Source: Betaproteobacteria bacterium
GTDB taxonomy: Bacteria > Pseudomonadota > Gammaproteobacteria > Burkholderiales > Sulfuricellaceae
NCBI GenBank assembly: GCA_021373185.1
Contig: JAJFTF010000005.1
Span: 10,572 to 74,571 of the forward strand
Reading direction: 5' to 3'
Length of the DNA: 64,000 bases
Under the pieces are notes generated by a model. It did no database searches. It saw only the letters and a list, made by a program, of their open reading frames with translations, and was not told where the DNA came from. Of the stretch, positions 18,385-51,165 are shown in pieces (positions within the stretch are counted from its first letter, which is position 1; the number at the start of each line of letters is the position of its first letter). Made by a program: the position numbers and the translations under genes.

Positions 18385-18460
18385 TGGTGCCCCAGAGACG
18401 AATCGAACGTCCGACCTACCCCTTAGGAGGGGGTCGCTCTATCCACTGAGCTACTGGGGC
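18385..18460 (-). tRNA. tRNA-Arg (CCT)
   Basis: Full cloverleaf: GCCCCAG acceptor, ACCCC-CTCCTAA-GGGGT anticodon arm, TTCGATT T-loop, encoded CCA. Confidence 0.97.
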
Positions 18461-21178: not shown

Positions 21179-22030
21179 ATGAAAAAAGACGATTGCGGCA
21201 GCCCGTTTGCGCCGGGACGAAAAGGATATATCCGGTTCTGCGATATTCCGTCCGAACTGATCGCGCTTCTCAATCATGGAAAAATCGAAACGGCGACCCT
21301 GACCGAGCAGGCCTCGATGGATTTCGCCATTGTGCTGCGAGAGGCATTGCGCGACTGGTCGGGCGATACGGCAGCGCTGGCACGCGAGGTAGCGGGGCAG
21401 GATTTTTCCCGGCAGGGGCTGGTGAAGCGCATGGAACTGGCCGGCAGGGCGTTGGGCGAGAGCGGCGCATTCGGCAATGCGCCGGCGTTGCAACAGCTAA
21501 CCGCGCACCCGGTCGATACGGTGCGGGGATTTGCCTGCTTTGCCATTGCCCTGCATCCGGGGCTGGAATTCGCGGAAAAATTCACGGCGATCAGGCCGCT
21601 GGCCGCCGACCGCCATTTTGGCGTGCGCGAATGGGCGTGGCTGGCGTTGCGACCGGCTGTCGCCGCTGCCCCGCTCGATGCCATCGCCCTGCTGAACGGC
21701 TGGGTGTCGGAAGCGGACGCCAACCTGCGCCGTTTCGCGGTGGAGATTACGCGGCCACGCGGGGTGTGGGCGAAGCACATTCCGTTGCTGCAGGCGGAGC
21801 CTTGGCGCGGCCTGCCGTTGCTTGAGCCGTGCCGCCGCGATGCAGCGCGTTATGTTCAGGATTCCGTGGCCAACTGGCTGAACGACGCCGCCAGGAGCCA
21901 ACCGGACTGGGTCGAAGCATTGTGCCGGGAGTGGTTCGGCGATAATTCCGATGACAAGGCATGTCGTTATATTTCACGGCGGGCGCAGCGTAATTTAAAC
22001 TTAACAAAAGGCAGTTCAGCCACGGATTGA
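21179..22030 (+). CDS. DNA alkylation repair protein (AlkD-like HEAT repeat)
   Basis: HFGVREWAW, RRFAVEITRPRGVW, YVQDSVANWLND motifs. Confidence 0.8.
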   Translation: MKKDDCGSPFAPGRKGYIRFCDIPSELIALLNHGKIETATLTEQASMDFAIVLREALRDWSGDTAALAREVAGQDFSRQGLVKRMELAGRALGESGAFGNAPALQQLTAHPVDTVRGFACFAIALHPGLEFAEKFTAIRPLAADRHFGVREWAWLALRPAVAAAPLDAIALLNGWVSEADANLRRFAVEITRPRGVWAKHIPLLQAEPWRGLPLLEPCRRDAARYVQDSVANWLNDAARSQPDWVEALCREWFGDNSDDKACRYISRRAQRNLNLTKGSSATD

Positions 22031-22166
22031 CACAGATGTACACGGATTATCAATGGATGGGCCTTCTCGTTGTAATCGCTTTTCAGGCGAGCAGAAAACC
22101 TTTGGCAACACCATTTGTTTTATCTGTGTGAATCCGTGTACATCTGTGGATAAAAGCAGTTTTTAA
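22006..22166. repeat. CCACGGAT/ATCTGTGG inverted-repeat element (short form)
   Basis: Left arm gccacggattgacacagatgtacacggatt and right arm aatccgtgtacatctgtggataaaagc share an 18-bp exact inverted match. Confidence 0.85.
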
Positions 22167-22264
22167 AACAGGCCGGACAAGCGATAGCAAAACGGTAGCC
22201 CGGCGCGCTGTGATAAAATTACGCATTGGGTTGTTCCGCTGGAATTTTTTGGGGAGTTTGAAAC

Positions 22265-22660
22265 ATGGCCGCTTTTACGACTGACGAAACTGCAAAGATC
22301 AAGCAAGCTCTGGAGCAGCGTCAACGGCAGCTCATCGAGGAAATCCGCGATGAGCTGGCTAGTTCTGGAGAGCAGCACTACATCGATCTGGCGGGCCGCG
22401 TGACCGATCTGGCCGATGAATCGGTGGCGGATCTGATCGCCGACATGGATGCGGCAATGGTTGACCGGCAGGTTATCGAAGTGCGGGAAATCGAGGCGGC
22501 ATCCGCTCGTCTCGCTGCCGGCGATTTCGGTTCCTGCGTCGATTGCGGCGCTGATATTCCGCTGGCGCGCCTGCTGGCGTACCCGACCGCCGTGCGCTGC
22601 ACGGCATGCCAGGCCGTGCACGAAAAAACCTATGCTCACGCAGGCAACCCATCGCTTTAG
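22265..22660 (+). CDS. TraR/DksA-family C4 zinc-finger protein
   Basis: CVDCG...IPLARL...CTAC; coiled coil with DLAD. Confidence 0.9.
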   Translation: MAAFTTDETAKIKQALEQRQRQLIEEIRDELASSGEQHYIDLAGRVTDLADESVADLIADMDAAMVDRQVIEVREIEAASARLAAGDFGSCVDCGADIPLARLLAYPTAVRCTACQAVHEKTYAHAGNPSL

Positions 22661-22722
22661 AAAGCAGTTTATCCACGGGTACACGGGTTATCAAAAAATT
22701 GTGTCAAGCACGTAGGCCACCC

Positions 22723-22904
22723 TGGTGCGATTCAAACTGATGTGAAATGCAGCATGTAGGTTGGGTTGAGCAGCCTTATCGCGAAACCCAACAAACCTAA
22801 ACAACAAAACCGGCTCTTGAAGTTTGAGTTTATTGGGTTTCGCAAAAAACCGCTCAACCCAACCTACATGTTTGTTTTACGTCACATCAGTTTGAATCGC
22901 ACCC
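22723..22904. mobile_element. MITE-like element (about 180 bp) with 22-bp perfect TIR and 8-bp flanking direct repeat
   Basis: GGTGCGATTCAAACTGATGTGA (22724-22745) inverted at 22882-22903; GGCCACCC at 22715-22722 and 22905-22912. Confidence 0.8.
22753..22870. repeat. GTAG-type REP doublet (REPIN-like)
   Basis: CATGTAGGTTGGGTTGAGC...GCGAAACCCAAC and inverted TTGGGTTTCGC...GCTCAACCCAACCTACATG. Confidence 0.85.
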
Positions 22905-23043
22905 GGCCACCCCTTAAGCCGGTAGGTGGATGGCTTATGAGCAGCGATTTGTTTTATCGGTGTCAATCCGTGCCATCCGTGGCTAAAGGCTTTTTTAAAT
23001 TTATTCACCAGGCGATTTCGCCGCGTTTCGGTTCTATTTCATT

Positions 23044-24936
23044 ATGCCTGTCGTTACCCTGGATAAAGTTTCCCTCGCCTATGGCCACCATCCCTTGCTG
23101 GATCATGCCGATTTGCAGCTCGACCCCGGCGAACGGGTCGGATTGATCGGGCGCAACGGCGGCGGCAAGTCGAGCCTGCTCAAGATCATCGCCGGCGTGG
23201 CGCACCCCGATGACGGCAAAGTGTGGCGCGCGCCGGGGATTAATCTGGCCTATGTGCCGCAGGAGCCGCAACTCGACCCCGATCATACGGTATTCGAAGC
23301 GGTGGCCGAAGGGCTGGTCGGCTTGAGCCAGTTGTTGATCGATTACCATGCGGTTTCCCACGCGCTCGGCGAAGAGGGTGCGGACGTCGATGCGTTGCTG
23401 GAGCGCATGCAGCACTTGCAGGGCGAACTGGAAGCGCGCGACGGCTGGCGTCAGCAAAGCCGCATCGATGCGGTGATGACCCGCCTTGCCTTGCCTGAAG
23501 ACGCGCTGGTTTCGTCGCTTTCCGGCGGTTGGAAAAAGCGCGTGGCGCTGGCTCGTGCGCTGGTTGCCGAGCCCGATGTGCTGGTGCTGGACGAGCCCAC
23601 CAACCATCTCGATCTCGCCGCCATCGAATGGCTGGAAGAGCTGCTCAAATCTTTTGTCGGCGGCGTCTTGTTCGTCACCCACGACCGGCGCTTTCTCGAC
23701 AATGTCGCCACGCGGATTGTCGAACTGGATCGCGGGCAACTGGCCAGTTTCCCCGGCAACTTCTCCGCCTTCCAGCGCCGGAAGCAGGAGATGCTCGAAG
23801 CTGAAGAAGTCTTTAACGCAAAATTCGACAAGGTTCTGGCCCAGGAAGAGGTGTGGATTCGCCAGGGCATCAAGGCTCGCCGCACCCGCAACGAAGGCCG
23901 TGTGCGGCGGCTGGAGCAGTTGCGGCGCGAACATACGGCACGCATCAACCAGACCGGCAAGGCCCGCCTCGCGCTAGATGCGGGAGATCGCTCCGGCAAG
24001 CTGGTGGCAGAACTGGAGCATGTTTCCAAGTCTTTCGGCGACAAGCCCATCATCCGGGATTTTTCCACGCGCATCATGCGCGGCGACCGCATCGGCCTGA
24101 TCGGGCCGAACGGCGCGGGCAAGACTACCCTGCTCAAGCTGATACTGGGCGAGTTGCAGCCCGATTCCGGCACGGTGAAGAGTGGCACCAAACTCGCCGT
24201 CGCCTATTTCGACCAGATGCGCGAGCAGCTCGACGAGGAGGCGACGCTGATCGACACGATCAGCCAGGGCAACGACTTCATCGAAATCGGCGAGGTGAAA
24301 AAACACGTCATCAGCTACCTCGGCGATTTTCTCTTTCCGCCGCAGCGCGCGCGCGCCAAGGTGTCGTCCCTCAGCGGAGGCGAGCGCAACCGCCTGTTGC
24401 TGGCGCGCCTGTTCACCCGTCCTGCAAACGTGCTGGTGCTGGACGAGCCGACCAACGACCTCGACATCGAAACGCTGGAGCTGCTCGAAGAGCTGCTGCT
24501 GGAATATTCCGGCACTTTGTTCCTGGTCAGCCATGACCGGACATTCCTCGACAATGTGGTGACCTCGACCATCGCTTTCGAAGGCGATGGCCACCTGGCC
24601 GAATATGCCGGCGGCTATGAAGACTGGCTGCGCTGCCGCCCGCGCCCCACAGGCGAAACCGCGAAACCGGCTGCAGTTGTCGTTGCGCCGAAACCAGAGG
24701 CCAAGCCGGTGGCAAAAGCCAAGCTTTCCTTCAAGGAAATTCGCGAACTGGAGGCGTTACCCAAGCAAATCGAGGTGCTGGAGCAGGAGCAGCAGGCCAT
24801 CGGTGAAAAGCTGGCGGACGGTGAACTTTACCGCGCCGATCCCGGCGAGGTAAAGCGCCTGCAGGCGCGCAATACCGAGATCGAGGAAACGCTGCTGAAG
24901 GTAATGGCGCGCTGGGAAGAACTCGAAGGAAAGTAG
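23044..24936 (+). CDS. uup: ABC-F family ATPase Uup
   Basis: Two Walker A motifs (GRNGGGKS, GPNGAGKT), RRTRNEGR linker, C-terminal coiled coil. Confidence 0.93.
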   Translation: MPVVTLDKVSLAYGHHPLLDHADLQLDPGERVGLIGRNGGGKSSLLKIIAGVAHPDDGKVWRAPGINLAYVPQEPQLDPDHTVFEAVAEGLVGLSQLLIDYHAVSHALGEEGADVDALLERMQHLQGELEARDGWRQQSRIDAVMTRLALPEDALVSSLSGGWKKRVALARALVAEPDVLVLDEPTNHLDLAAIEWLEELLKSFVGGVLFVTHDRRFLDNVATRIVELDRGQLASFPGNFSAFQRRKQEMLEAEEVFNAKFDKVLAQEEVWIRQGIKARRTRNEGRVRRLEQLRREHTARINQTGKARLALDAGDRSGKLVAELEHVSKSFGDKPIIRDFSTRIMRGDRIGLIGPNGAGKTTLLKLILGELQPDSGTVKSGTKLAVAYFDQMREQLDEEATLIDTISQGNDFIEIGEVKKHVISYLGDFLFPPQRARAKVSSLSGGERNRLLLARLFTRPANVLVLDEPTNDLDIETLELLEELLLEYSGTLFLVSHDRTFLDNVVTSTIAFEGDGHLAEYAGGYEDWLRCRPRPTGETAKPAAVVVAPKPEAKPVAKAKLSFKEIRELEALPKQIEVLEQEQQAIGEKLADGELYRADPGEVKRLQARNTEIEETLLKVMARWEELEGK

Positions 24937-25011
24937 CGCTTGATATATCTCATTGCGGATAATGAGTGAAATGTTGTCTTATTGGCGCATCGTTTTTGCG
25001 ACTGACTATCT

Positions 25012-26259
25012 GTGATCAAGAACCTGTTTTTTCTGCTGCTGGTTTTTCCCCTGACCGCAACGGCAGCTTTCCCCTCGTTCCAGGCGCTGATCGACGCTAC
25101 GCCTGCCGGCGGTACCTTGCGCCCGAAACCGGGCACCTATGCCGGGCCGGCAACGATCTCGCGCCAGATCGCCATTGATGGCGGCGGCAAGGTGACGGTG
25201 GATGGCGGCGGCATCGGCTCGGTGCTGCTCATCGACAGCAGCAGAGTGGTGGTGCGGGGGTTGCGCCTGACCAATTCGGGGGAATCCCACGACCGCATGG
25301 ATAGCGGCATTACGCTGACCGGCAACGAAAATCGGATCGAGGACAACGTGGTCGAAGGTACGTTGTTCGGCATCAGTCTGAAACGGGCCAACCACAATGT
25401 TTTGCGGCGCAACCGCATTCGCTCCAAACCGGCAGAACTGGCGATGCGCGGTGAGAGCATCCGTCTCTGGTACAGCATGGATAACCTGATCGAGGGCAAC
25501 GATATCGATCAGGCGCGCGATCTCGTGATGATGAATTCGCCGCGCAATCGTATCGTCGGCAATGTCATTCGCAACAGCCGTTACGGCATCCACCTGTTTT
25601 TTTCGCCGGATAGCGTGCTGGAAGGCAACTCGCTCTACCATACCGCCACCGGTATCATCGTGCTGAACTCAGACCGGGTGATGGTGCGGCGTAACCTGAT
25701 CTTTCATTCGCTGGGCGTGAGCGGCGCGGGGCTGGCCTTCAAGATGAGTGCGGAGGACGTGGCGGATGGCAATGAAATCGTCCATTGCGCCGTCGGCATC
25801 CTCGCGGATTCGCCGGTCGAAGCGGCGGGAAAGACCCTGTTGCGCGGCAACCGGATCGCCCATAATGCCGTCGGCATACGGTTCTACGGCGAGCGCGGCG
25901 GCCATGCCCTGTATGGCAACAGCTTCGAGAACAACCTGATCCATGTCGCCATGTTCGGCAGCGGCGATGCGCTCGCCAACGATTTCCGCGGCAATTACTG
26001 GGACGATTATCAGGGTTTCGACCGCAATCACGACGGCATCGGCGATATCCCGCATGAGCTTTATGCCTACACAGACCGGATCTGGATGGAAATTCCCATG
26101 GCGCGTTTTTTCCGCAACTCTCCCGCGTTGGAACTGCTGGATTTTCTTGAGCGGTTGGCGCCATTCTCCGCGCCAGACCTGGTTCTGCGAGATGCTGCGC
26201 CGGTATTCAACAAGCCGGCATGGCGGCTGAATACATCTGGGAAAACCGCGATTCAATAG
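25012..26259 (+). CDS. nosD: NosD-family periplasmic parallel beta-helix protein
   Basis: Signal peptide, repeated GN/RN beta-helix coils, GNYWDDY.G.D...DGIGDIP motif. Confidence 0.8.
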   Translation: MIKNLFFLLLVFPLTATAAFPSFQALIDATPAGGTLRPKPGTYAGPATISRQIAIDGGGKVTVDGGGIGSVLLIDSSRVVVRGLRLTNSGESHDRMDSGITLTGNENRIEDNVVEGTLFGISLKRANHNVLRRNRIRSKPAELAMRGESIRLWYSMDNLIEGNDIDQARDLVMMNSPRNRIVGNVIRNSRYGIHLFFSPDSVLEGNSLYHTATGIIVLNSDRVMVRRNLIFHSLGVSGAGLAFKMSAEDVADGNEIVHCAVGILADSPVEAAGKTLLRGNRIAHNAVGIRFYGERGGHALYGNSFENNLIHVAMFGSGDALANDFRGNYWDDYQGFDRNHDGIGDIPHELYAYTDRIWMEIPMARFFRNSPALELLDFLERLAPFSAPDLVLRDAAPVFNKPAWRLNTSGKTAIQ

Positions 26260-26271
26260 CGTTTTTCAGGC

Positions 26272-26484
26272 TTATCGTTTCCGCAACGGATCAAGCAGCG
26301 GCGACAAGCCGTTGTGATCCATCTCCTGCATCAGCGCCAATAGCCGACCGATTTCCCCATCCGGGAAACCGGTGCGGGCAAACCAGTTAAGGTATTGTCC
26401 CGGCAGGTCGGCAATCAGGCGGCCCTTGTATTTGCCATAAGGCATGACAAGAGTAACCAGGCGTTCCAAATCTTCAGGATTCAA
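26272..26484 (-). CDS. DUF3820-family small protein
   Basis: MPYGKYKGRLIADLP..YL.WF motif. Confidence 0.85.
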   Translation of the reverse strand: MNPEDLERLVTLVMPYGKYKGRLIADLPGQYLNWFARTGFPDGEIGRLLALMQEMDHNGLSPLLDPLRKR

Positions 26485-26496
26485 GTTGGTTGCGCT

Positions 26497-27612
26497 TCAA
26501 GATCCAATCATCTGCCGCACCACCGAATTGAACGGCGCGATCCATTCTTCGGCAAACTGATTGTCGCAGGCGTTGACCTCGGCAATGGCGCGCAGCATGG
26601 AGCGGCCCTGGCCGCGGTGGGCATGTTTCAGCATCACCGCTTCGAAGGCATCCACCATGGCCAGGATCTTGGCGCCGGCGCAGATCTGGTCGGACATCAG
26701 TCTATTCGGGTAACCGGCGCCATCGGGTGTTTCATGGTGTTGCGCCACCATTTCTGCAGCCGCTTTCCAGTTTGGCATGCGTTCCAGCAGACCTGCACCG
26801 AAGTCGGGGTGGGCGCGCAGGGCCGTCATGTCGCTCTCGCTGATTTTCCCCGATCTGGTCAGCCAGATCGATTCTGGCAGCAGCGTCATGCCGATGTCGT
26901 GCATGTAGATGGCTGCTTCCAGTTGTACCGGATCGACCGGTTTGCCGGCAGCCAGATTGGTCGCCAGGGCGAGGCGCAGCATGCGGATGGTGCGACCGCG
27001 GAAATGAGGGGAGCGACTTTCAAGCTGTTGCGCCAGCGAACGGAAAAAGCGCAGGTCAGCGGCGATTTTATTTTCGGCGCGGGGAATCGCGGAATGCTCC
27101 ACCTTGCCAGTCGGGGAGGTGGCCGCACCAATGGCCGGGCGGAAGCTGGTGACCGATTCGATGATATCGCCGATCATGCCATCCATCTGGTCTTGCCCCA
27201 CCTTGCTCAGTCTTTCCAGACCCTCCACCAGTTTGATGAGTTGCAGGTGAGCGAGCGACTTTCCCACGCCCAGCGTTTCCACGGCGAGTTCCAGGCGGTC
27301 AATTGTCAGCAGGATCATTTCGCCGAGCAGTTCGGTAAAGGCCAGCTCGCCGGAGCGTACCCGTCCCAGCAGGGTTTCGAGCGGGTGGCAGATGGTTACG
27401 CCCATCTCGACCTTGCACAGGGAAGCATCCCCCTTGAGGTTGTGCAGGGTGCGAAACAGGTTGGACATGATCTCCGGGTCGGCGGGCGACTCTTTTAACC
27501 GGGCTACATCCTGCTCGATCTTGGGAGCGAGATCCTTGAGGTCGTCCTGGTATTCCTCGAACGATTCGCGATCTTCGATTTTTGGCTGGGTCAGCGCTTG
27601 CAGGTTTGCCAT
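26497..27612 (-). CDS. Hpt domain fused to HD-GYP phosphodiesterase
   Basis: LFRTLHNLKG (Hpt His); MHDIG and HHETPDGAGYP (HD-GYP). Confidence 0.85.
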   Translation of the reverse strand: MANLQALTQPKIEDRESFEEYQDDLKDLAPKIEQDVARLKESPADPEIMSNLFRTLHNLKGDASLCKVEMGVTICHPLETLLGRVRSGELAFTELLGEMILLTIDRLELAVETLGVGKSLAHLQLIKLVEGLERLSKVGQDQMDGMIGDIIESVTSFRPAIGAATSPTGKVEHSAIPRAENKIAADLRFFRSLAQQLESRSPHFRGRTIRMLRLALATNLAAGKPVDPVQLEAAIYMHDIGMTLLPESIWLTRSGKISESDMTALRAHPDFGAGLLERMPNWKAAAEMVAQHHETPDGAGYPNRLMSDQICAGAKILAMVDAFEAVMLKHAHRGQGRSMLRAIAEVNACDNQFAEEWIAPFNSVVRQMIGS

Positions 27613-27715
27613 TCGGTATCCCCTCGTTGTCGGGCAGGTTTATTGATTTCAGATAGTATCGGCGCTTAATGACTGTGGCAATAGCCGTAACTTGAATGGA
27701 CGTTTGCCAATGGCG

Positions 27716-27743
27716 AAAAAAAACCCGGCATGCCGGGTTTTTT
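27716..27743 (-). terminator. Intrinsic terminator after cold-shock gene
   Basis: A8-CCCGGCATGCCGGG-T6. Confidence 0.85.
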
Positions 27744-27760
27744 CTGGTTCGCCGTGAAGC

Positions 27761-27964
27761 TTAACCTGCCTGGATGTTCGAGGCTTGTTTGCCTTTAGGT
27801 CCTGCAGTTACGTCGAAAGTCACGCGCTGGTTTTCCTGCAGCGTCTTGAAGCCGCCAGCCTGGATCGCCGAGAAGTGCGCGAACAAATCTTCGCTGCCAT
27901 CATCAGGGGTAATGAATCCAAAGCCTTTAGCATCGTTAAACCATTTTACAATTCCAGTTGCCAT
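27761..27964 (-). CDS. cspA: Cold-shock protein (CspA family)
   Basis: [24 protein letters not shown] motifs; paralog name uncertain. Confidence 0.95.
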
Positions 27965-28349
27965 TGTGTTTTTCCTAAACTCAAAAAATTATTTGGGCGA
28001 GAATGCCCGTGTCTATCGAATCAAGAAAAAACAGGAACTATTTGATCGTATCGCAATTAAAAGCTTGAATTCTTTAGAGCACGAGCAAGTCTACAGTATT
28101 TCTGAGCAAGACAGGGCGAAGTTTCGAGTAAAAGTATTCTTTATTCGTACAAGGGCGCAATTTATTCTGCATGATTTCCGGTTAATGAGTCGGCCATTAA
28201 ATAGATTGAAATGGCCGCTCTATCGTAGGCTGGTGGTGAGCAAAGCGAACCCCAGCATGTTCGCGGTTACCAAACGCTGGGGTTCGTGCCTCACCACCAG
28301 CCTACAAAAATATTTAATGGTCGACTCAATAATGGCTGGCCCTGCTGGG

Positions 28350-30329
28350 TTACAGCTTGAATGTCGCAATCGCGCGCCGCAAGGCGGCCAAGGCATCTTT
28401 GCCCGTTTGCCCTCCATAGCGCAACGCAACATAGCGGGCGGTGATGTCGGCTATGCCCGGCGCTGATTGTGGTTTGATTCGGGCAGCGCGTGCGGCGAAA
28501 TCCTGCGCACCCTCATGCGCGGCGCGCACGATGCCTGCCCTGGCCAGCTTGCGGCAAAATTTCAGGTACAGGCGTTGTGCTGCGTCGGTGTCGCGCACAT
28601 AGACGCGGCGCAGCATGTGCAGGGCGTACAGCCCGACCAGCAGCGCGATCCATTCCATTATGCCGATTGCCATGTTCTGCCAGGTGACGAATTCCATTCC
28701 CATGTGGGTCAGGAAGGCGAATTGCCGCTCCGTGTCATACCCCAGCACCCACTGGTTCCACTGGTTGGTCATCAGGTCGAGATTGGCGCGCAGGCCGAGC
28801 AGCCACGACCATTGCGTGCGCGCCATGAACGGCAGCACGGTGCTGTCCGCCAGGCCGCTATTCAGGATGGCGGCGGCGAGGCCGTTCTGCACGCGCAGCG
28901 GCGCAATGGTGGCGGTGGGATCGATGCGCACCCAGCCGCGCTCGCGCAGCCACACTTCGGCCCAGGCATGGGCATCGGACTGGCGCACGATGTAGTAATT
29001 GCCGAGCCGATTGTATTCACCGCCCTGGTAGCCGGTTACCACGCGGGCGGGAATGCCTGCCGCACGCATCAGGAACACGAAACTGGAGGCGTAGTGTTCG
29101 CAGAAACCCTTGCGGGAATCGAACAGGAAGTCGTCCACCGAGTGCGCTCCCAGCAGCGGAGGTCTCAGCGTGTAGAAAAATTCCTCGCGGTTGAAATATT
29201 TGAGGGCTGCCTGCAACACGGCTTCATCGTCATGCAGGCTGGCGCGCCATTCTGCGGCGAGTTGCCGGGTGCGGGGATTCCGTCCGGGTGGAAGCCGCAA
29301 TGCACGTTGCAGCTCGCGCGGCTCTTCTTCGGCATTGGCGCGGTAGCCCAACTGCGAGTGCGCAGTGTAGCGCAGGCGCGAGGTGACCGCGGTTCTTTGC
29401 TGGAACTGGAAGTCGTTGCCCAGCATGGCCGGGATAGAAAGCCGCGTCGGCATTTCCAGCGCAAACAGCCAGGTTTTGTTGTGCGGCTCCAGCGTCACGG
29501 TGTAATCGACCGGTTTGTCCAGATTATCCAGTTGCGGCTGTTTGGCCCGAGTTGTCCAGCCTTGCGTCCAGGTGCGACCGTCGAACTCCTGCAGTACCGG
29601 GCCGCGCCAGTACATTTGCGTGTGCGGCGGCGCTGCGCCGTTGAACGTGACGCGGAATGCCACTGCATCGGACAGCGAAAGCTGGCTCAGGCTGCCGGGA
29701 GACATCTTGTCGTCCAGCCCGCTGCGGCCATATGCGTCCTGCGGCAGCCCCCACAATGGCCCCGGTACGCGCGGGAACAGGACAAACAGCACCAGCATCA
29801 GCGGGATTGCCTGAAGCAGCAGCATGACCGCGATGCGCAGGCGTGGGCGCAGGGCCGGCGCACCGGGTTGCAGTTGCAACCATGTCGTCACGATGGCCAG
29901 CAGCGTGACGAGCATGAACAGCGCGGTGACGATGCTTTGCGAATAAAGAAAATTGGTGATGACGATGAAGCAGGCAAGGTAAATTGCCACGAATGCATCG
30001 CGCCGGGTGCGCAGTTCCAGCAGCTTGAGCGCGGCAAGCAGGATCAGCAGGGATACGCCGACATCGCGTCCGAAGAAAGTATGGAAGCCGACCAGAATGC
30101 CGCCGATGCTGCCCAGCGTGACAATGAGCAGCAGCCAGCGCGGCGGCAGCGTGGCGCTACGGTAGGACAGGTAGGCGCGCCACCCCAGCAGCGTGGCGCA
30201 CAGCAGGCTGACCCATGGCGGCAAGTGGGCGACATGGGGGGCGCTGACCAGCAGGATGCAGGCGAGCAAGCCATAAATGAGGCGGACGTCATTCACCTGC
30301 GGCGGGATTTTTTTCGCGAACAGCCTCAT
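28350..30329 (-). CDS. tgpA: DUF3488 plus transglutaminase protein (TgpA-like)
   Basis: TM N-terminus; GFCEHYASS...HAWAEV...DPT Cys-His-Asp triad. Confidence 0.9.
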   Translation of the reverse strand: MRLFAKKIPPQVNDVRLIYGLLACILLVSAPHVAHLPPWVSLLCATLLGWRAYLSYRSATLPPRWLLLIVTLGSIGGILVGFHTFFGRDVGVSLLILLAALKLLELRTRRDAFVAIYLACFIVITNFLYSQSIVTALFMLVTLLAIVTTWLQLQPGAPALRPRLRIAVMLLLQAIPLMLVLFVLFPRVPGPLWGLPQDAYGRSGLDDKMSPGSLSQLSLSDAVAFRVTFNGAAPPHTQMYWRGPVLQEFDGRTWTQGWTTRAKQPQLDNLDKPVDYTVTLEPHNKTWLFALEMPTRLSIPAMLGNDFQFQQRTAVTSRLRYTAHSQLGYRANAEEEPRELQRALRLPPGRNPRTRQLAAEWRASLHDDEAVLQAALKYFNREEFFYTLRPPLLGAHSVDDFLFDSRKGFCEHYASSFVFLMRAAGIPARVVTGYQGGEYNRLGNYYIVRQSDAHAWAEVWLRERGWVRIDPTATIAPLRVQNGLAAAILNSGLADSTVLPFMARTQWSWLLGLRANLDLMTNQWNQWVLGYDTERQFAFLTHMGMEFVTWQNMAIGIMEWIALLVGLYALHMLRRVYVRDTDAAQRLYLKFCRKLARAGIVRAAHEGAQDFAARAARIKPQSAPGIADITARYVALRYGGQTGKDALAALRRAIATFKL

Positions 30330-31285
30330 GAATTTCGCTCACTCGACCCGAACAGCGCCAGCGCACGCAAGCACTCGGCGCGGTGTGCTGCGCCGTGTTG
30401 CGGCGGTAGTTCGATAGCGGGCAGGCGCAGGCCATAAGGCAGTTTTTGCGCGTCGGCATCCAGCACCCACCGCGCCAGGATCTCCAGTTTGCGCTCGGCA
30501 TGCACGGCGGGCAGCAGCGACCAGTCCAGCCAAAGCTCCTGTCCCTGCGGCGTGCTGAATTGCTTGACCTGCAAGCCCTGTTCGCGCGCCAGCGCTTTCC
30601 AGGCGATACGCGGCATGGCATCGCCGGCGACATAATTGCGCAGCCCGGAAAAATCTTCGTCGCCCGTCATGTTGAATGCACCCAGGCCGCTTTGTGTCAG
30701 GCTGGCGGGCAATGGCTGCGGCGCGGCAGGCTTGGGATAGACCAGGCAACGCACATCGAATTGCAGGTATGACCAGGCATGGAACAGGCCGAGCGGGTAT
30801 TCGGTAAACAGGGTCAGCCGCCCGCTGCTCAGCCAGCCGCGTTGAGGTGCCGGCAGCGGCAGCCGGACTTCGCTGGTGTGTTGCGCGGCAACGCCGAAGG
30901 TGACGCAATGCCTGCTATCGTCACGCAGGTTGAGGCTGAAGCGCGGCAGGGTGCTGGCGTTGTGGAAGTGAAACACGAACTGCGCCATGTCTCCGGCGAA
31001 CACAGAATCGACCCGGCCCGCGCTTATTTCCAGTTGCGCCATGTCGCGGAAGGCATGCAGCATGGTCATCAGGGCGGCGGTGCCGAGCAGGAAGGTGAGC
31101 ACGTAGCCCAGGCTCAGGTTGTAGTTGACGTCGCCCAGCAGCATCACCAGCAGCAGGACGGCAAAGCCGAAACCCTGGCGGGTGGGCAGGATGAAGATGC
31201 GGCGCTGGTTGAGCGTGACCGCGCCGCTGTCGATTTTTGGCCGGAACAGCCAAGTGCGGAATCGTTGTTTGAGTGCGGTCAGCAC
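30326..31285 (-). CDS. DUF58 protein
   Basis: DFSGLRNYVAGD...IAWKALAR motif; moxR-DUF58-TGase operon. Confidence 0.9.
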   Translation of the reverse strand: MLTALKQRFRTWLFRPKIDSGAVTLNQRRIFILPTRQGFGFAVLLLVMLLGDVNYNLSLGYVLTFLLGTAALMTMLHAFRDMAQLEISAGRVDSVFAGDMAQFVFHFHNASTLPRFSLNLRDDSRHCVTFGVAAQHTSEVRLPLPAPQRGWLSSGRLTLFTEYPLGLFHAWSYLQFDVRCLVYPKPAAPQPLPASLTQSGLGAFNMTGDEDFSGLRNYVAGDAMPRIAWKALAREQGLQVKQFSTPQGQELWLDWSLLPAVHAERKLEILARWVLDADAQKLPYGLRLPAIELPPQHGAAHRAECLRALALFGSSERNS

Positions 31286-31304
31286 GGGCGTGGGGTCTGT
31301 GCCT

Positions 31305-32222
31305 TCAGGGGATCGGCACGGCCTCGATCAGCGCTCTGGCAAGCTTGTCGCCATCCGATGCCTGCACATCCTGCACGCCTTGCAGGCGGTGGCTGGCGAC
31401 GCCCGGCAATACCGCCTGCACGTCTTCCGGCATCACCGCATTGCGTTCGTCCAGCAGCGCCCAGGCGCGCGCGGCGGCGATCAGCGACAGCCCAGCACGC
31501 GGCGACAGACCATGCACAAAGCGCGCCGATTCGCGGGTGTGGCGCAGGATGGCTTGCACGTAATCGAGCAGGGCGGGGGAAACGAAGACTTGTTTCACTT
31601 GCTGTTGCAGCGCCAGCAGTTCTGCGGCCTCCATCTGCGGCGCGAGGCCGGAGATGATCTCGCGCCGCTCCACGCCGGAGAGCAGGCCGCGCTCCGCCTG
31701 CGCATCCGGGTAGCCGAGCTGGATGCGCATCAGGAAGCGGTCGAGCTGCGATTCCGGCAGTGAAAAAGTGCCGATATGGTAAGTCGGGTTCTGCGTGGCG
31801 ATAACGAAGAATGGCGTCGGCAGCGGGCGCGTGACGCCCTCGATGGTCACCTGCTGCTCCTCCATCGCCTCCAGCAGCGCGCTTTGCGTTTTCGGTGTGG
31901 CGCGGTTGATCTCATCGGCCAGCACCATTTGCGCGAAGATCGGCCCGGCGTGGAACTTGAATTCGCCGCTGTCGCGCTGGTACACCGACACGCCGAGAAT
32001 GTCGGCGGGCAGCATGTCGCTGGTGAACTGGATGCGCTGGAACTGCAAGCCGAGCGAGCGAGCCAACCCATGTGCCAGTGTCGTCTTGCCGACACCCGGC
32101 AGATCCTCGATCAGCAAATGGCCGCGCGCCAGCAGGCAGGCCAGTGCCAGCCTGATCTGGTGCGGCTTGCCGAGGATGACCTGCTCGGCCTGGCGAATGA
32201 CGTTGCGCAGTGAATTGCTCAT
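31305..32222 (-). CDS. moxR: MoxR-family AAA+ ATPase
   Basis: EDLPGVGKT, ADEINRA, ATQNP, LPESQLDRF. Confidence 0.95.
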   Translation of the reverse strand: MSNSLRNVIRQAEQVILGKPHQIRLALACLLARGHLLIEDLPGVGKTTLAHGLARSLGLQFQRIQFTSDMLPADILGVSVYQRDSGEFKFHAGPIFAQMVLADEINRATPKTQSALLEAMEEQQVTIEGVTRPLPTPFFVIATQNPTYHIGTFSLPESQLDRFLMRIQLGYPDAQAERGLLSGVERREIISGLAPQMEAAELLALQQQVKQVFVSPALLDYVQAILRHTRESARFVHGLSPRAGLSLIAAARAWALLDERNAVMPEDVQAVLPGVASHRLQGVQDVQASDGDKLARALIEAVPIP

Positions 32223-32274
32223 GGTGATGGCCTGTGAATTGGTTTTATGGAAAACAGTTTAGCCACGGATCAAT
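32186..32274. repeat. Copy A of about 90-bp direct repeat (moxR leader plus first 12 codons)
   Basis: Aligns to 32755-32845 with about 7 differences. Confidence 0.9.
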
Positions 32275-32704
32275 GCGCGTACACCAGCTTGAGAATTGGT
32301 CTTCGACCGGCAACATGCAACCGAATAAAAATTTTCCGCCCGTTTAACACCTTGTGTCCCCAAGAAAAATAATTGGCGTCGGTGAAATGTAGCGTATGAG
32401 TGGCATACGGTTCCAGCCGACGGTCACCAGAATCAAAGTCTGCGCTTCCAAAGGACTCGAAACTTTTTAGCGGCCAACGACCGGAACAATAGAGAAGTTC
32501 CCAGTACGTGAGAATGAGCGGGCGATTTGAAAGGTTACGGATAAAAATTTCATTGCCAACGCTTTCACTACCCGTGAAGTTGTAGCTGACGTCAACGCGA
32601 AAGCGATCTCGCCAGAGTTCAAGGAGCTTGACGATTGCAAGCAGCGTGGAGAGACCCGCACCCCACCAAGCAATTAGTGTCGATCCAGATTCAGCAGCAC
32701 ACAT
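32270..32704 (-). CDS. Hypothetical protein (about 144 aa, one N-terminal TM)
   Basis: AT-richer ORF; ATG 32704 preferred; the longer in-frame extension runs through the duplicated moxR start. Confidence 0.6.
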   Translation of the reverse strand: MCAAESGSTLIAWWGAGLSTLLAIVKLLELWRDRFRVDVSYNFTGSESVGNEIFIRNLSNRPLILTYWELLYCSGRWPLKSFESFGSADFDSGDRRLEPYATHTLHFTDANYFSWGHKVLNGRKIFIRLHVAGRRPILKLVYAH

Positions 32705-32725
32705 ATGATGACGCCCCATCAAAGC

Positions 32726-32750
32726 ATCAAAGGGGCCTGGCCCCTTTGAT
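32726..32750. repeat. 25-nt palindrome ATCAAAGGGGCC-T-GGCCCCTTTGAT
   Basis: Perfect 12-bp arms; sister motif at 32840-32864. Confidence 0.85.
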
Positions 32751-32754
32751 TGTA

Positions 32755-32845
32755 CGGCCTGGCGGATGACGTTGCGTAGTGAATCGCTCATGGTGATGGC
32801 CTGTGAATTGGTCTTATATAGAAAACAGTTTAGCCATGGATCAAT
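32755..32845. repeat. Copy B of moxR 5' duplication (encodes MSDSLRNVIRQA)
   Basis: See copy A. Confidence 0.9.
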
Positions 32846-32864
32846 CGAGTCTGACCCCATTGAT
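32840..32864. repeat. 25-nt imperfect palindrome ATCAATCGAGTC-T-GACCCCATTGAT
   Basis: Same length and architecture as 32726-32750. Confidence 0.7.
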
Positions 32865-32904
32865 TCATTCGTATGTTGATGATGATCTGAGATTCAGGAT
32901 GCGT

Positions 32905-32946
32905 ATTCATAAGGCGCCCAGCGTCCGGTGGAATGATGGGTTATGC
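32905..32946 (-). mobile_element. Truncated attC site (left arm) at end of PIN cassette
   Basis: GCATAAC (contains the TAA stop)-CCATC-ATTCCACC-GGACGCTG; right arm and GTTRRRY not recognisable. Confidence 0.65.
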
Positions 32947-33759
32947 ATCGGATTTCGTAAGGTCTTCGAAGTCCGCAAGAATTTCCGCTAACAGCTTTTC
33001 CTCTTCCTCTTCCATTTCCTTCGTGACGGCAGCATGGACAATCTTTAGGCCTGCCGATAGCTTGTCGGTAAGGATTATTTTTCTCTTCTTGCTTACGCGC
33101 TCGCTGAATTCTTGTTTGAGCCAGTCATTCAGGTAGGATTTGCCATCGTAGGTCGCTCCGTAATCTGTGTCCCGAGTGACTATTACGACGTGCTTTCCGC
33201 TGTCAGCCGAGCATTTAACAATCCACTCCCAGTTCACTGCATCACCAATGGATGTGTCGGCCTGCTTTCTTGGCGGATAGCCAAGTGTGAAGCGCTTTCT
33301 GGCTAAGTTTCTTACCGAAATGCGCTCCTTCTTTGAACGAGAAAGGTTGAATGGTGAATCGTTTTTGAAGATGCGCTGTAGAGTTTGATACACAGGGTCA
33401 TGATGCGTTGGGTTACTGAGAACAGCTTGAATTTTTTCGTTGACCTTTTTGTGTTGCGCAATAAGTTCCTTCTTCTTCTTTTCGATCATCTTCGTTGCTT
33501 GGAGGTCGGCAACGAGTGCGGGAACTGTAAGCTTTCCCCAGTCCGGGGCAGTGAAGTTGTTCAGTGACTCAACAATGACACGTTGGCGGTTTTTCTTGTA
33601 CTCCATCTCGATTTGGGAGCCAACGATCAGCCGATCCTTGCAGGCTTCCAACTGCTCAAGATATTTGGTGCTGATGTCAGTCTTCCTGATTCGGTAGAAA
33701 TCTAAGAGGACATTGGTATCAACAAAGAGAAGTGTATCGAGCACCGCTTCAACAGCCAT
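32941..33759 (-). CDS. PIN-domain protein (PIN_8/DUF4935-like), integron-cassette-type gene
   Basis: FVDTNVLLDFY, IGDAVNWEW, VTRDTDY acidic PIN motifs. Confidence 0.8.
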   Translation of the reverse strand: MAVEAVLDTLLFVDTNVLLDFYRIRKTDISTKYLEQLEACKDRLIVGSQIEMEYKKNRQRVIVESLNNFTAPDWGKLTVPALVADLQATKMIEKKKKELIAQHKKVNEKIQAVLSNPTHHDPVYQTLQRIFKNDSPFNLSRSKKERISVRNLARKRFTLGYPPRKQADTSIGDAVNWEWIVKCSADSGKHVVIVTRDTDYGATYDGKSYLNDWLKQEFSERVSKKRKIILTDKLSAGLKIVHAAVTKEMEEEEEKLLAEILADFEDLTKSDA

Positions 33760-33776
33760 TGGTGTCTCCTAGAGAT

Positions 33777-33845
33777 GCATAATGTTAAGTTGAGGGGCTG
33801 ACGCGGGCTGCTTCGCGGCAGTCCAGCTCGAACGTTAGGTTAACC
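33777..33845 (-). mobile_element. Degenerate attC recombination site (69 bp)
   Basis: Minus strand GGTTAAC-CTAAC-GTTCGAGC...CCTCAAC-TTAAC-ATTATGC with extra C and A on the 5' arm; followed by AGGAG RBS and ATG. Confidence 0.7.
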
Positions 33846-33859
33846 TGAGAAAAGTCGTT

Positions 33860-33909
33860 CATTGATAATCCGTGTGCATCGGTGTTAATCCGTGGATAAA
33901 AGCGGTTTT
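33860..33909. repeat. Right-type ATCCGTG repeat arm
   Basis: cattgataatccgtgtgcatcggtgttaatccgtgga matches the reverse complement of 22019-22055 at 33/37 positions by eye. Confidence 0.85.
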
Positions 33910-33951
33910 TCAATTTATTCAGTATAGGCGCATGACGCAGTATCGAATGGG

Positions 33952-50792: not shown

Positions 50793-51165
50793 TGGTGGAG
50801 GCGGGGGGAATCGAACCCCCGTCCGCAAGCCCTCTACAGGCAGTTCTACATACTTAGTCCGATTATTTGATTTCGCCCGAACCACGCCAACCGAACAGGC
50901 TGGATTCACGCTAGTTGCCTTAAGTTTAGTATCGGTTCAAGCAACCCGGACCGACACGAGTCTCTGTGAATGACTCTGCTCTTTCCACCTTGCGGCTTCA
51001 AGCCGGCCCAGAGACCAACCGGTGCAGAGTCTAACCGTCAATTAAGCGGCTAGAGCGTAGTTTTCGTCGTTTGCGACTAGTTTTTTTCAGATGGATTTAC
51101 GAGGTAACTGAGCCTCGGTATGCCCTACACTGCTTTGCAACCCACGTCGAAACCGGGTCGCCCCC
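50793..51165 (-). ncRNA. ssrA: tmRNA
   Basis: 5' GGGGGCGACCCGGTTTCGAC, tag ORF ANDENYALAA*, 3' GGTTCGATTCCCCCCGCCTCCACCA with G3.U pair. Confidence 0.98.

Follow-up and report, generated by a model that had tools for sequence, protein, structure and literature searches.

Inverted arrays of 8-bp units in a Sulfuricellaceae genome: gene-less palindromic copies and their relation to GxxExxY nuclease genes

The DNA analyzed here, a 64-kb stretch referred to below as the window, belongs to a betaproteobacterium, and the best named homologs of its genes are found in Sulfuricella and Sulfuricellaceae. Between positions 22003 and 33913 it contains three loci with short sequence arms composed of 8-bp units, and the subject of this report is these arms together with GxxExxY, a family of small nucleases whose genes lie between arms of the same kind in other genomes. 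A preliminary description made from the sequence alone had placed arms at the three loci. When the window was searched with a profile built from full-length arms, namely those of the window and those of Sulfuricella loci, exactly seven arms were recovered at those places, the next match having an E value of 0.21. The arms, and the loop of the first locus, are:

22003..22058, plus strand: left arm of locus 1, AAAAGGCAGTTCAG, then CCACGGAT tg ACACAGAT gt ACACGGAT, then TATCAATG (E 6e-16)
22059..22111: loop of locus 1
22112..22169, minus strand: right arm of locus 1, three units, then GGATAAAAGCAGTTTTT (E 1e-12)
22655..22686, plus strand: degenerate left arm of locus 2, CCACGGGT ACACGGGT TATCAA (E 2e-4)
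22949..23000, minus strand: right arm of locus 2, three units, one of them 1 nt shorter, then GGCTAAAGGCTTTTTT (E 5e-12)
32244..32271, plus strand: short arm L3 of locus 3, AAAACAGTTTAGCCACGGATCAATG, one unit (E 5e-5)
32815..32841, plus strand: short arm L4 of locus 3, AAAACAGTTTAGCCATGGATCAAT (E 5e-3)
33859..33913, minus strand: full arm R3 of locus 3, three units (E 5e-15)

All four long arms (E 6e-16 to 5e-12) are part of the profile model, and none of the three short ones is. The window arms consist of 8-bp units (C/A)CAC(N)GAT that recur at an interval of 10 bp; three units of the form CAC(N)G(A/G)T, at intervals of 9-11 bp, are present in four of the seven, and base shuffles yield arrays of at least two units at a rate of 0.075 per window. 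The wider pattern that marks the family, arms of at least two tandem 8-bp units C(A/G)C-N-(A/G)(A/G)-N with a period of about 10 bp, is found here, as is the inverted orientation of the arms around a loop or gene, with direct pairs at loci 1 and 2 and one element split in its loop at locus 3. A complete arm has an A-rich outer part (AAAA-GCAG-TT-YAK), a middle of up to three units (CCACGGAT nn ACAC(N)GAT nn ACACGGAT, 10 bp spacing) and an inner motif (TATCAATG for left ends; CATTTGTTTTATC, read on the plus strand, for right ends). The sub-repeats ACACGGAT and ATCCGTGT are accompanied in the window arms by the variants ACACAGAT and ACACCGAT, and an A run and a T run bracket the arms of the window subtype. 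The three short left arms are deletion forms, with two units 8 bp apart in the left arm of locus 2 and one unit each in L3 and L4. The enclosed lengths proposed earlier (about 70 bp, about 340 bp and 1.1-1.7 kb) agree with those measured: 74 nt between the unit arrays of locus 1, about 340 bp in total at locus 2, and 1.06 or 1.63 kb at locus 3.

At locus 1 the left arm encodes the final 10 codons and the TGA stop of the open reading frame (ORF) at 21179-22030. The preliminary description had reported this arm-encoded gene end, which holds, and had called the gene alkD-like, a label that stays unverified, as the product has only a weak HEAT_2 match. In the 89% relative (L130-L132) the orthologous protein is 8 aa shorter, its stop lying directly before the arm. 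Relatives are named here by the identity of their DksA-like protein, except for the contig from metagenome run X15, which is ranked by nucleotide identity. The locus 1 loop is weakly conserved among Sulfuricellaceae-type copies and shows about 75% identity to the orthologous loop of the 89% relative. The sole perfect 18-bp pairing between the locus 1 arms joins 22031-22048 with 22131-22148 and is one unit out of register, as slippage among tandem units would yield. Folding of the locus is stronger than that of shuffled sequences (z -3.6).

Species-representative genomes (596 Gb) were scanned with CCACRGATNNACACNGATNNACACRGAT, a pattern for which our own arithmetic gives a chance expectation of about one match in a data set of this size. 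The triple-unit arm was found in at least 120 genome stretches, which by record titles represent more than 15 phyla, the carriers including Verrucomicrobiota, Planctomycetota, Acidobacteriota, Cyanobacteria, Bacteroidota, alpha-, beta- and gamma-proteobacteria, Spirochaetes, Chloroflexota and Nitrospirota. The cross-genome consensus is A(A/G)CCAC(A/G)GAT nn ACAC(N)GAT nn ACAC(A/G)GAT. Copies occupy intergenic DNA, tight against the ends of genes: among 51 classifiable hairpins, 31 lie between tandem, 14 between convergent and 6 between divergent genes, and five further hairpins fall inside a mechanically called ORF. In 64 of 75 plus/minus arm pairs from other genomes just a loop of 4-162 nt is enclosed, seven pairs enclose 375-521 nt, and the few remaining pairs are doubtful. 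The inverted repeat typically ends two bases outside CCAC, and at 85 strict hairpins no target-site duplication beyond chance was seen, the lengths of direct repeats being equal to those of permuted flanks. Together with a raised sequencing depth of arms in metagenome runs X1 and X15, this distribution bears out the earlier suggestion of a dispersed, multicopy palindromic family. The triple-unit arm also occurs in 110 stretches of virus-classified IMG/VR contigs (L224-L333, 988 kb).

Clustering of the ORFs beside arms yielded, among the stretches listed, one multi-locus family only, represented at seven loci: GxxExxY. Its members match TIGR04256 (E down to 4e-42) and also PF13366 (PDDEXK_3), and are PD-(D/E)XK nucleases of about 125 aa. 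Conserved residues are E34, D73, an acidic residue at 83 and K85, i.e. the E...D...(E/D)xK signature of PD-(D/E)XK nucleases. All seven genes sit exactly between arms 375-521 nt apart. The preliminary description had mentioned, as an unverified point, that similar repeats flank GxxExxY genes, and the association proves to be tight and reciprocal, holding from the arm side and from the protein side. For the latter, metagenomes were scanned with an alignment of the seven proteins, giving 80 loci chosen independently of arms. Inverted unit arrays are present on both sides of 51 of the 76 GxxExxY genes with enough flank, on one side of a further 16, and on neither side of nine, several of which have other unit variants; at control positions shifted by 950 nt, arrays on both sides were found in 0 of 85 cases. 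The unit core differs by locus (CACGAAT, CACAGAT/CACGGAT, CGCAGAT, CACAGAC, CGCAGAC, CACGGAG and others) and follows the protein lineage: identity among GxxExxY proteins is 59% within unit-core groups versus 50% between them, a gap that was reached in none of 1000 permutations. GxxExxY (PF13366) is a large family in bacteria, archaea and viruses and is listed as "function unknown" in a survey of PD-(D/E)XK proteins (PMC3424549). A PDB sequence search, PADLOC and PHROGs returned nothing for the arms or for GxxExxY.

A form of the element close to the window copies exists in Sulfuricella. The extended outer motif AAAAAGCAGTTCAGCCACGGAT recurs at three loci of Sulfuricella metagenome-assembled genomes (L036, L092 and L116). 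A further locus, L102, has AGCCACGGATTAACACGGATGTACACAGAT arms around a GxxExxY gene, with the same unit pattern and a divergent outer part, and L092, which is from the same assembled genome as L102, contains gene-less hairpins with near-identical arms. Full-length hairpins of this subtype are 150-165 bp long, and their loop of about 70 nt is weakly conserved. In each of four metagenomes containing the window organism or a near relative, a full element with about 91% identity to L102 was detected at similar depth; in X1 the values are 9.9 for the element and 7-8.6 for the window organism. This co-occurrence agrees with, and does not prove, a GxxExxY copy elsewhere in the same genome. The depth of the arms in X1 is about 5-8 times that of the GxxExxY gene and of single-copy flanks, in X15 it is more than 20 times single-copy, and contigs end at arms in the metagenome assemblies examined.

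The order of the HEAT-repeat gene, the dksA-like gene and the ABC-F gene is conserved among relatives, which allows the occupancy of loci 1 and 2 to be compared:

89% relative (L130-L132): locus 1 filled; locus 2 filled, with an orthologous left arm and without the nested insert described below
about 83% relative (X15 contig): locus 1 empty, 22000 joining 22173 with 4 nt between; locus 2 empty, 22650 joining 23007 with 61 nt between
79% relative (L133): locus 1 not comparable; locus 2 empty, with an unrelated 60-nt hairpin
70-73% relatives (including S. denitrificans skB26): locus 1 empty, with a 96-nt spacer; locus 2 in a different gene order

The most parsimonious account is that both insertions occurred in an ancestor shared by the 89% relative and the window organism. 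Since the two lineages separated, the right arm has diverged about as much as the flanking intergenic DNA (about 85% identity versus about 88% overall), and the left arm of locus 1 differs from its ortholog by a clean 20-nt indel, equal to two units. The arms are not fixed hairpins and not visibly constrained. That they might be fixed, terminator-like hairpins was an objection foreseen in the preliminary description; instead loci 1 and 2 vary in occupancy and no terminator-like site is present, nor do the arms match any defined insertion sequence (IS), repetitive extragenic palindromic (REP) or Rfam family.

With moderate confidence, we read the seven arms as the terminal inverted repeats of three old, gene-less copies of an element resembling a miniature inverted-repeat transposable element (MITE), whose complete form encloses one GxxExxY gene. 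The family would be defined by arms of two to four 8-bp units set one DNA helical turn apart, and the window copies would be orphan, non-autonomous derivatives of the Sulfuricellaceae subtype. The phased units are putative binding sites for a GxxExxY oligomer, and the nuclease may act on the arms in their paired state. Given that loops can be of almost any length (4-160 nt), it would more likely recognize a hairpin or cruciform than a duplex palindrome with fixed spacing. By analogy with REP sequences and their REP-associated tyrosine transposases (RAYTs), a nuclease encoded elsewhere in the genome might move or maintain gene-less copies in trans; these greatly outnumber the gene-bearing ones. 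A possible variant is homing: with the arms serving as homology, the gene would place copies of itself in gene-less hairpins, and this would explain both why the gene is always found between arms and why no duplication accompanies it. What had been taken for cargo would have reached the loops later, as an unrelated MITE at locus 2 and as foreign low-GC DNA at locus 3. The window copies themselves look inactive: clean 20-nt slippage has removed units, and the copies diverge about as much as neighbouring intergenic DNA.

Several observations weigh against this interpretation of the arms. No GxxExxY ORF is present in any frame of the window, as the preliminary description had also stated; none of the 110 viral arm stretches encodes the protein, and the gene occurs in only seven of the at least 120 genome stretches, and therefore arms persist well without a linked gene. 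The covariation of unit core and protein could be mere co-inheritance. Derivation of the hairpin loops from the GxxExxY gene by internal deletion was considered and rejected, as the homology between L102 and the hairpins stops at the arms. A nuclease of about 125 aa has no known way to perform insertion alone, and we infer trans-mobilization from metagenome co-occurrence only. The empty sites used for comparison come from relatives 70-83% identical, so that insertion junctions are not exact, and since divergence from the 89% relative the elements have stayed in place, with no visible mobility at present.

A more far-reaching proposal, which we regard as tentative and hold at somewhat less than even chances, is that GxxExxY and its arms form an undescribed class of selfish element. 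Here the nuclease would recognize the hairpin or cruciform of its own arms and spread, or home, into gene-less hairpins without duplication, and breaks made in the loop could at times capture foreign DNA, of which loci 2 and 3 would be examples.

The content of these two loci bears directly on what the arms enclose. At locus 2 the loop contains one further element:

22723..22904: nested MITE of 182 bp and of a different family, with 22-bp ends GGTGCGATTCAAACTGATGTGA

An 8-bp direct repeat, GGCCACCC, borders it on either side (22715-22722 and 22905-22912), and a REP-like palindrome, CATGTAGGTTGGGTTGAGC...GCTCAACCCAACCTACATG, lies inside it (22753-22771 / 22852-22870). The orthologous element of the 89% relative lacks the insert and has a single GGTCACCC at that place; in X1 the depth of the nested MITE is about five times single-copy. 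Having its own ends and an 8-bp target duplication, the insert is therefore an independent, classical MITE that was moved by its own mechanism. The earlier identification of a MITE with a REP-like sequence stands, and its reading as material carried by the arms does not.

Locus 3 is more complex. In addition to the three arms it comprises the following features:

32186..32275 and 32755-32845: copies A and B of a 90-nt direct duplication, about 94% identical, with arm L4 within copy B
32270..32710, minus strand: cargo ORF 1, 146 aa, with a hydrophobic N-terminal stretch on reading the sequence and no family match
32941..33759, minus strand: PIN_12 / PIN_8 domain gene, 272 aa, in low-GC DNA

The inner end of R3 and the next 25 nt or so (to about 33835) fit the consensus of the family for a left end and the start of a loop, and L3, read on the minus strand, corresponds to a right end with the last bases of the loop (GCGCATTG). 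Locus 3 is therefore a single element interrupted within its loop, with R3 as the left end on the minus strand and L3 and L4 as right ends. The boundaries of the cargo coincide with the loop start and the loop end of this split element, and G+C content is 0.41-0.51 in the insert versus 0.62-0.69 in the flanks; the cargo is foreign low-GC DNA in the element loop, presumably a later arrival. Each copy of the duplication consists of a right-end short arm (L3 or L4), 28 nt from upstream of moxR and the first 37 nt of moxR. A mechanically called ORF of 196 aa (32270-32860) is a chimera of cargo ORF 1 and the duplicated moxR start. The duplication probably records a recombination event, unequal or illegitimate, in which two variants of the locus with different loop inserts took part. 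A strong hairpin lies upstream of cargo ORF 1 (32726-32750; folding z -3.4), and the PIN protein matches one PHROG of unknown function. The MoxR protein is 93% identical even in Gallionellaceae, the region upstream of moxR is not syntenic, and no orthologous empty state of locus 3 was obtained among the moxR homologs compared. In run X5 there is an ambiguous joint from 32793 to 33951.

These inserts raise the idea, put forward in the preliminary description, that an arm pair is a landing pad or vehicle that captures varied small cargo, for example when loop breaks made by a nuclease are repaired with foreign DNA. In its favour, two of the window's three loci do have foreign DNA precisely in the loop, the divergence between the copies of right end plus moxR start suggests strains that once had different loop inserts, and the GxxExxY gene itself is always between arms. 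As a general account we nevertheless consider it unlikely, and the wider survey does not sustain it. No cargo family besides GxxExxY, with its seven genes, recurs across the 75 arm pairs, of which 64 have a short loop only, and the apparent pairs 2-3 kb apart that were examined (e.g. L071) proved to be two separate hairpins. The insert at locus 2 has its own ends and target duplication, and no case was seen in which arms with cargo other than GxxExxY had been copied to a second site.

An explanation of a different kind, to which we give a similarly small chance, is that the arms are structures used by the host, either RNA hairpins that stabilize, process or end transcripts, or phased sites for a host protein, with GxxExxY genes as secondary tenants. 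The position of the copies, tight between genes and mostly after gene ends, would suit such a role, as would the bracketing A and T runs of the window subtype, the fold of locus 1 and the replacement, by the locus 2 element, of a different hairpin that follows dksA in the 79% relative. Arm-like sequence also occurs in metatranscriptome contigs from a sediment run, only as pieces from other organisms, and the metatranscriptomes of the source study give no coverage of the locus. The DnaA-box sequence TGTGGATAA is present at 22143-22151. Against host use, presence varies between related genomes, and orthologous arms diverge like flanking intergenic DNA and lose whole units. No intrinsic terminator (a short G+C-rich stem followed by a T tract) was found at any window arm, and terminator or promoter consensus matches at the arms are not above chance. 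The polarity of the A and T runs is not conserved across phyla. With Rfam 15 at gathering scores the arms have no family match in the whole window; at E values up to 10 the arm region gives only spurious plant miRNA matches on the REP-like palindrome nested in 22723-22904, and 16 loci with canonical hairpins likewise gave no match. The unit core changes with the GxxExxY lineage and not with the host phylum.

Two likenesses of the arms to host signals can be recorded beside this. The DnaA-box sequence at 22143-22151 is formed by the outermost unit and flank of an arm; the corresponding positions at 33891-33899 and 22670-22678 also match TGTGGATAA, perfectly or with one base off, and the cross-phylum arm consensus TTAACCACA has one mismatch to the DnaA box. 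This likeness of the outermost units may be coincidence. Outward-facing promoter-like matches occur at two arms, 22666-22694 (minus strand) and 33840-33869 (plus strand), in a number not above shuffle expectation; they arise from the inner motif of left-type arms, ATTATCAA, which reads TTGATAAT outward.

The remaining alternative, that the locus 3 cargo is a pair of integron cassettes (an attC cluster without integrase) merely lying beside solo arms, is very improbable: the stretch 33782-33846 has, to the eye, RYYYAAC and GTTRRRY-like boxes around a GC-rich centre, and the cargo genes are small, low in GC and of accessory type, but with shuffles as reference and no dedicated attC model this stretch folds no better than chance (z -0.46) and the post-PIN region gives z +0.47, no IntI integrase was found near the locus among the ORFs scanned (in one scan, the best 25 of 55 families), and the cargo boundaries are those of a single split element. 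The earlier label of integron-type cassette material is not sustained.

Among known systems the closest is that of REP sequences and bacterial interspersed mosaic elements (BIMEs) with RAYT, and each known system fails at least one defining test. As is established for REP/RAYT, the arm family consists of dispersed, intergenic, multicopy palindromes, has one small nuclease-type gene between inverted copies, has gene-less copies that far outnumber the gene, and leaves no target duplication. The differences are that the protein here is the PD-(D/E)XK nuclease GxxExxY of about 125 aa, whereas RAYT is a Y1 HUH (IS200/IS605-type) transposase; that the ends are arrays of 8-bp units with a 10-bp period rather than one imperfect palindrome of 20-40 nt with a GTAG head; and that the same arm sequence occurs in many phyla, whereas REPs are species-specific. 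The window arms lack a GTAG head, and no RAYT or other transposase and no integrase was found among the window ORFs, within the scope given above for the scan.

Bacterial MITEs (for example Correia/NEMIS, ERIC and RUP) resemble the arm family, whose copies of 150-170 bp are non-coding, multicopy and intergenic, with terminal inverted repeats and variable occupancy. The arm family differs from them in that it has no target-site duplication, that no parent IS with a DDE transposase was found, and that its parent-like form, with a PD-(D/E)XK gene, shares only the arms with the hairpin copies. The ends of Mu, Tn7 and IS21 also contain several direct copies of a short site per end, with the ends inverted, but these elements have large DDE transposases and make target duplications of 5 bp or similar size, whereas the arm family has a minimal nuclease and no duplication. 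IVS-type ORF elements (the 23S rRNA intervening-sequence ORF, "four helix bundle protein" TIGR02436) are small single-ORF units with inverted repeats that occur in many copies in diverse phyla, and their long stems are possible RNase III substrates. They encode another protein family, no arm was seen in an rRNA gene here, albeit without a systematic test, and we know of no sequence shared by the two. Searches of the literature on GxxExxY, PF13366, TIGR04256, the arm sequences, arm-encoded peptides, and PDDEXK with MITE yielded no description of the arms or of the association. The arm family, as a variant of the nuclease-plus-palindrome theme, is apparently undescribed; database curators may have noted the repeats informally.

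The surroundings of loci 1 and 2 contain further repeats in other strains. In another Sulfuricella, a palindrome of CGCAGAGG units lies upstream of the ABC-F gene (L136, 12040-12180), and the equivalent site of S. denitrificans skB26 (L134, 12095-12165) has a REP-like palindrome, GTAGGAGCGACC...GGTCGCTCCTAC; palindromic elements seem to accumulate at this intergenic position. A 73% relative (L135-L137, 1297-8800) has, upstream of the HEAT-repeat gene, an islet with integrase, HigB/HTH and primase-like genes, and its counterpart in the window consists of glycogen-phosphorylase-like and other genes. The neighbourhood of the HD-GYP gene is not conserved among relatives. Elsewhere the window has housekeeping content (nuo operon, htpG, gyrA, tmRNA and others), and its structured RNAs are ordinary:

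18385-18460, minus strand: tRNA-Arg(CCT)
27715-28110, minus strand: cspA thermoregulator leader, upstream of a cold-shock gene
50793-51165, minus strand: tmRNA, with the tag ANDENYALAA

For annotation, the window has three orphan copies of the element, a nested MITE, and a small islet of foreign DNA with a PIN gene. Beyond it, the GxxExxY family gains a concrete and testable partner, a helically phased inverted array that flanks most of its genes and also forms numerous gene-less hairpins. Repeats of this kind create spurious ORFs, and if the proposed relationship is true it would also explain common intergenic repeats that break metagenome assemblies. If the nuclease does act on the arms, REP/RAYT would be joined by a second nuclease-plus-palindrome system, one that uses another protein fold.

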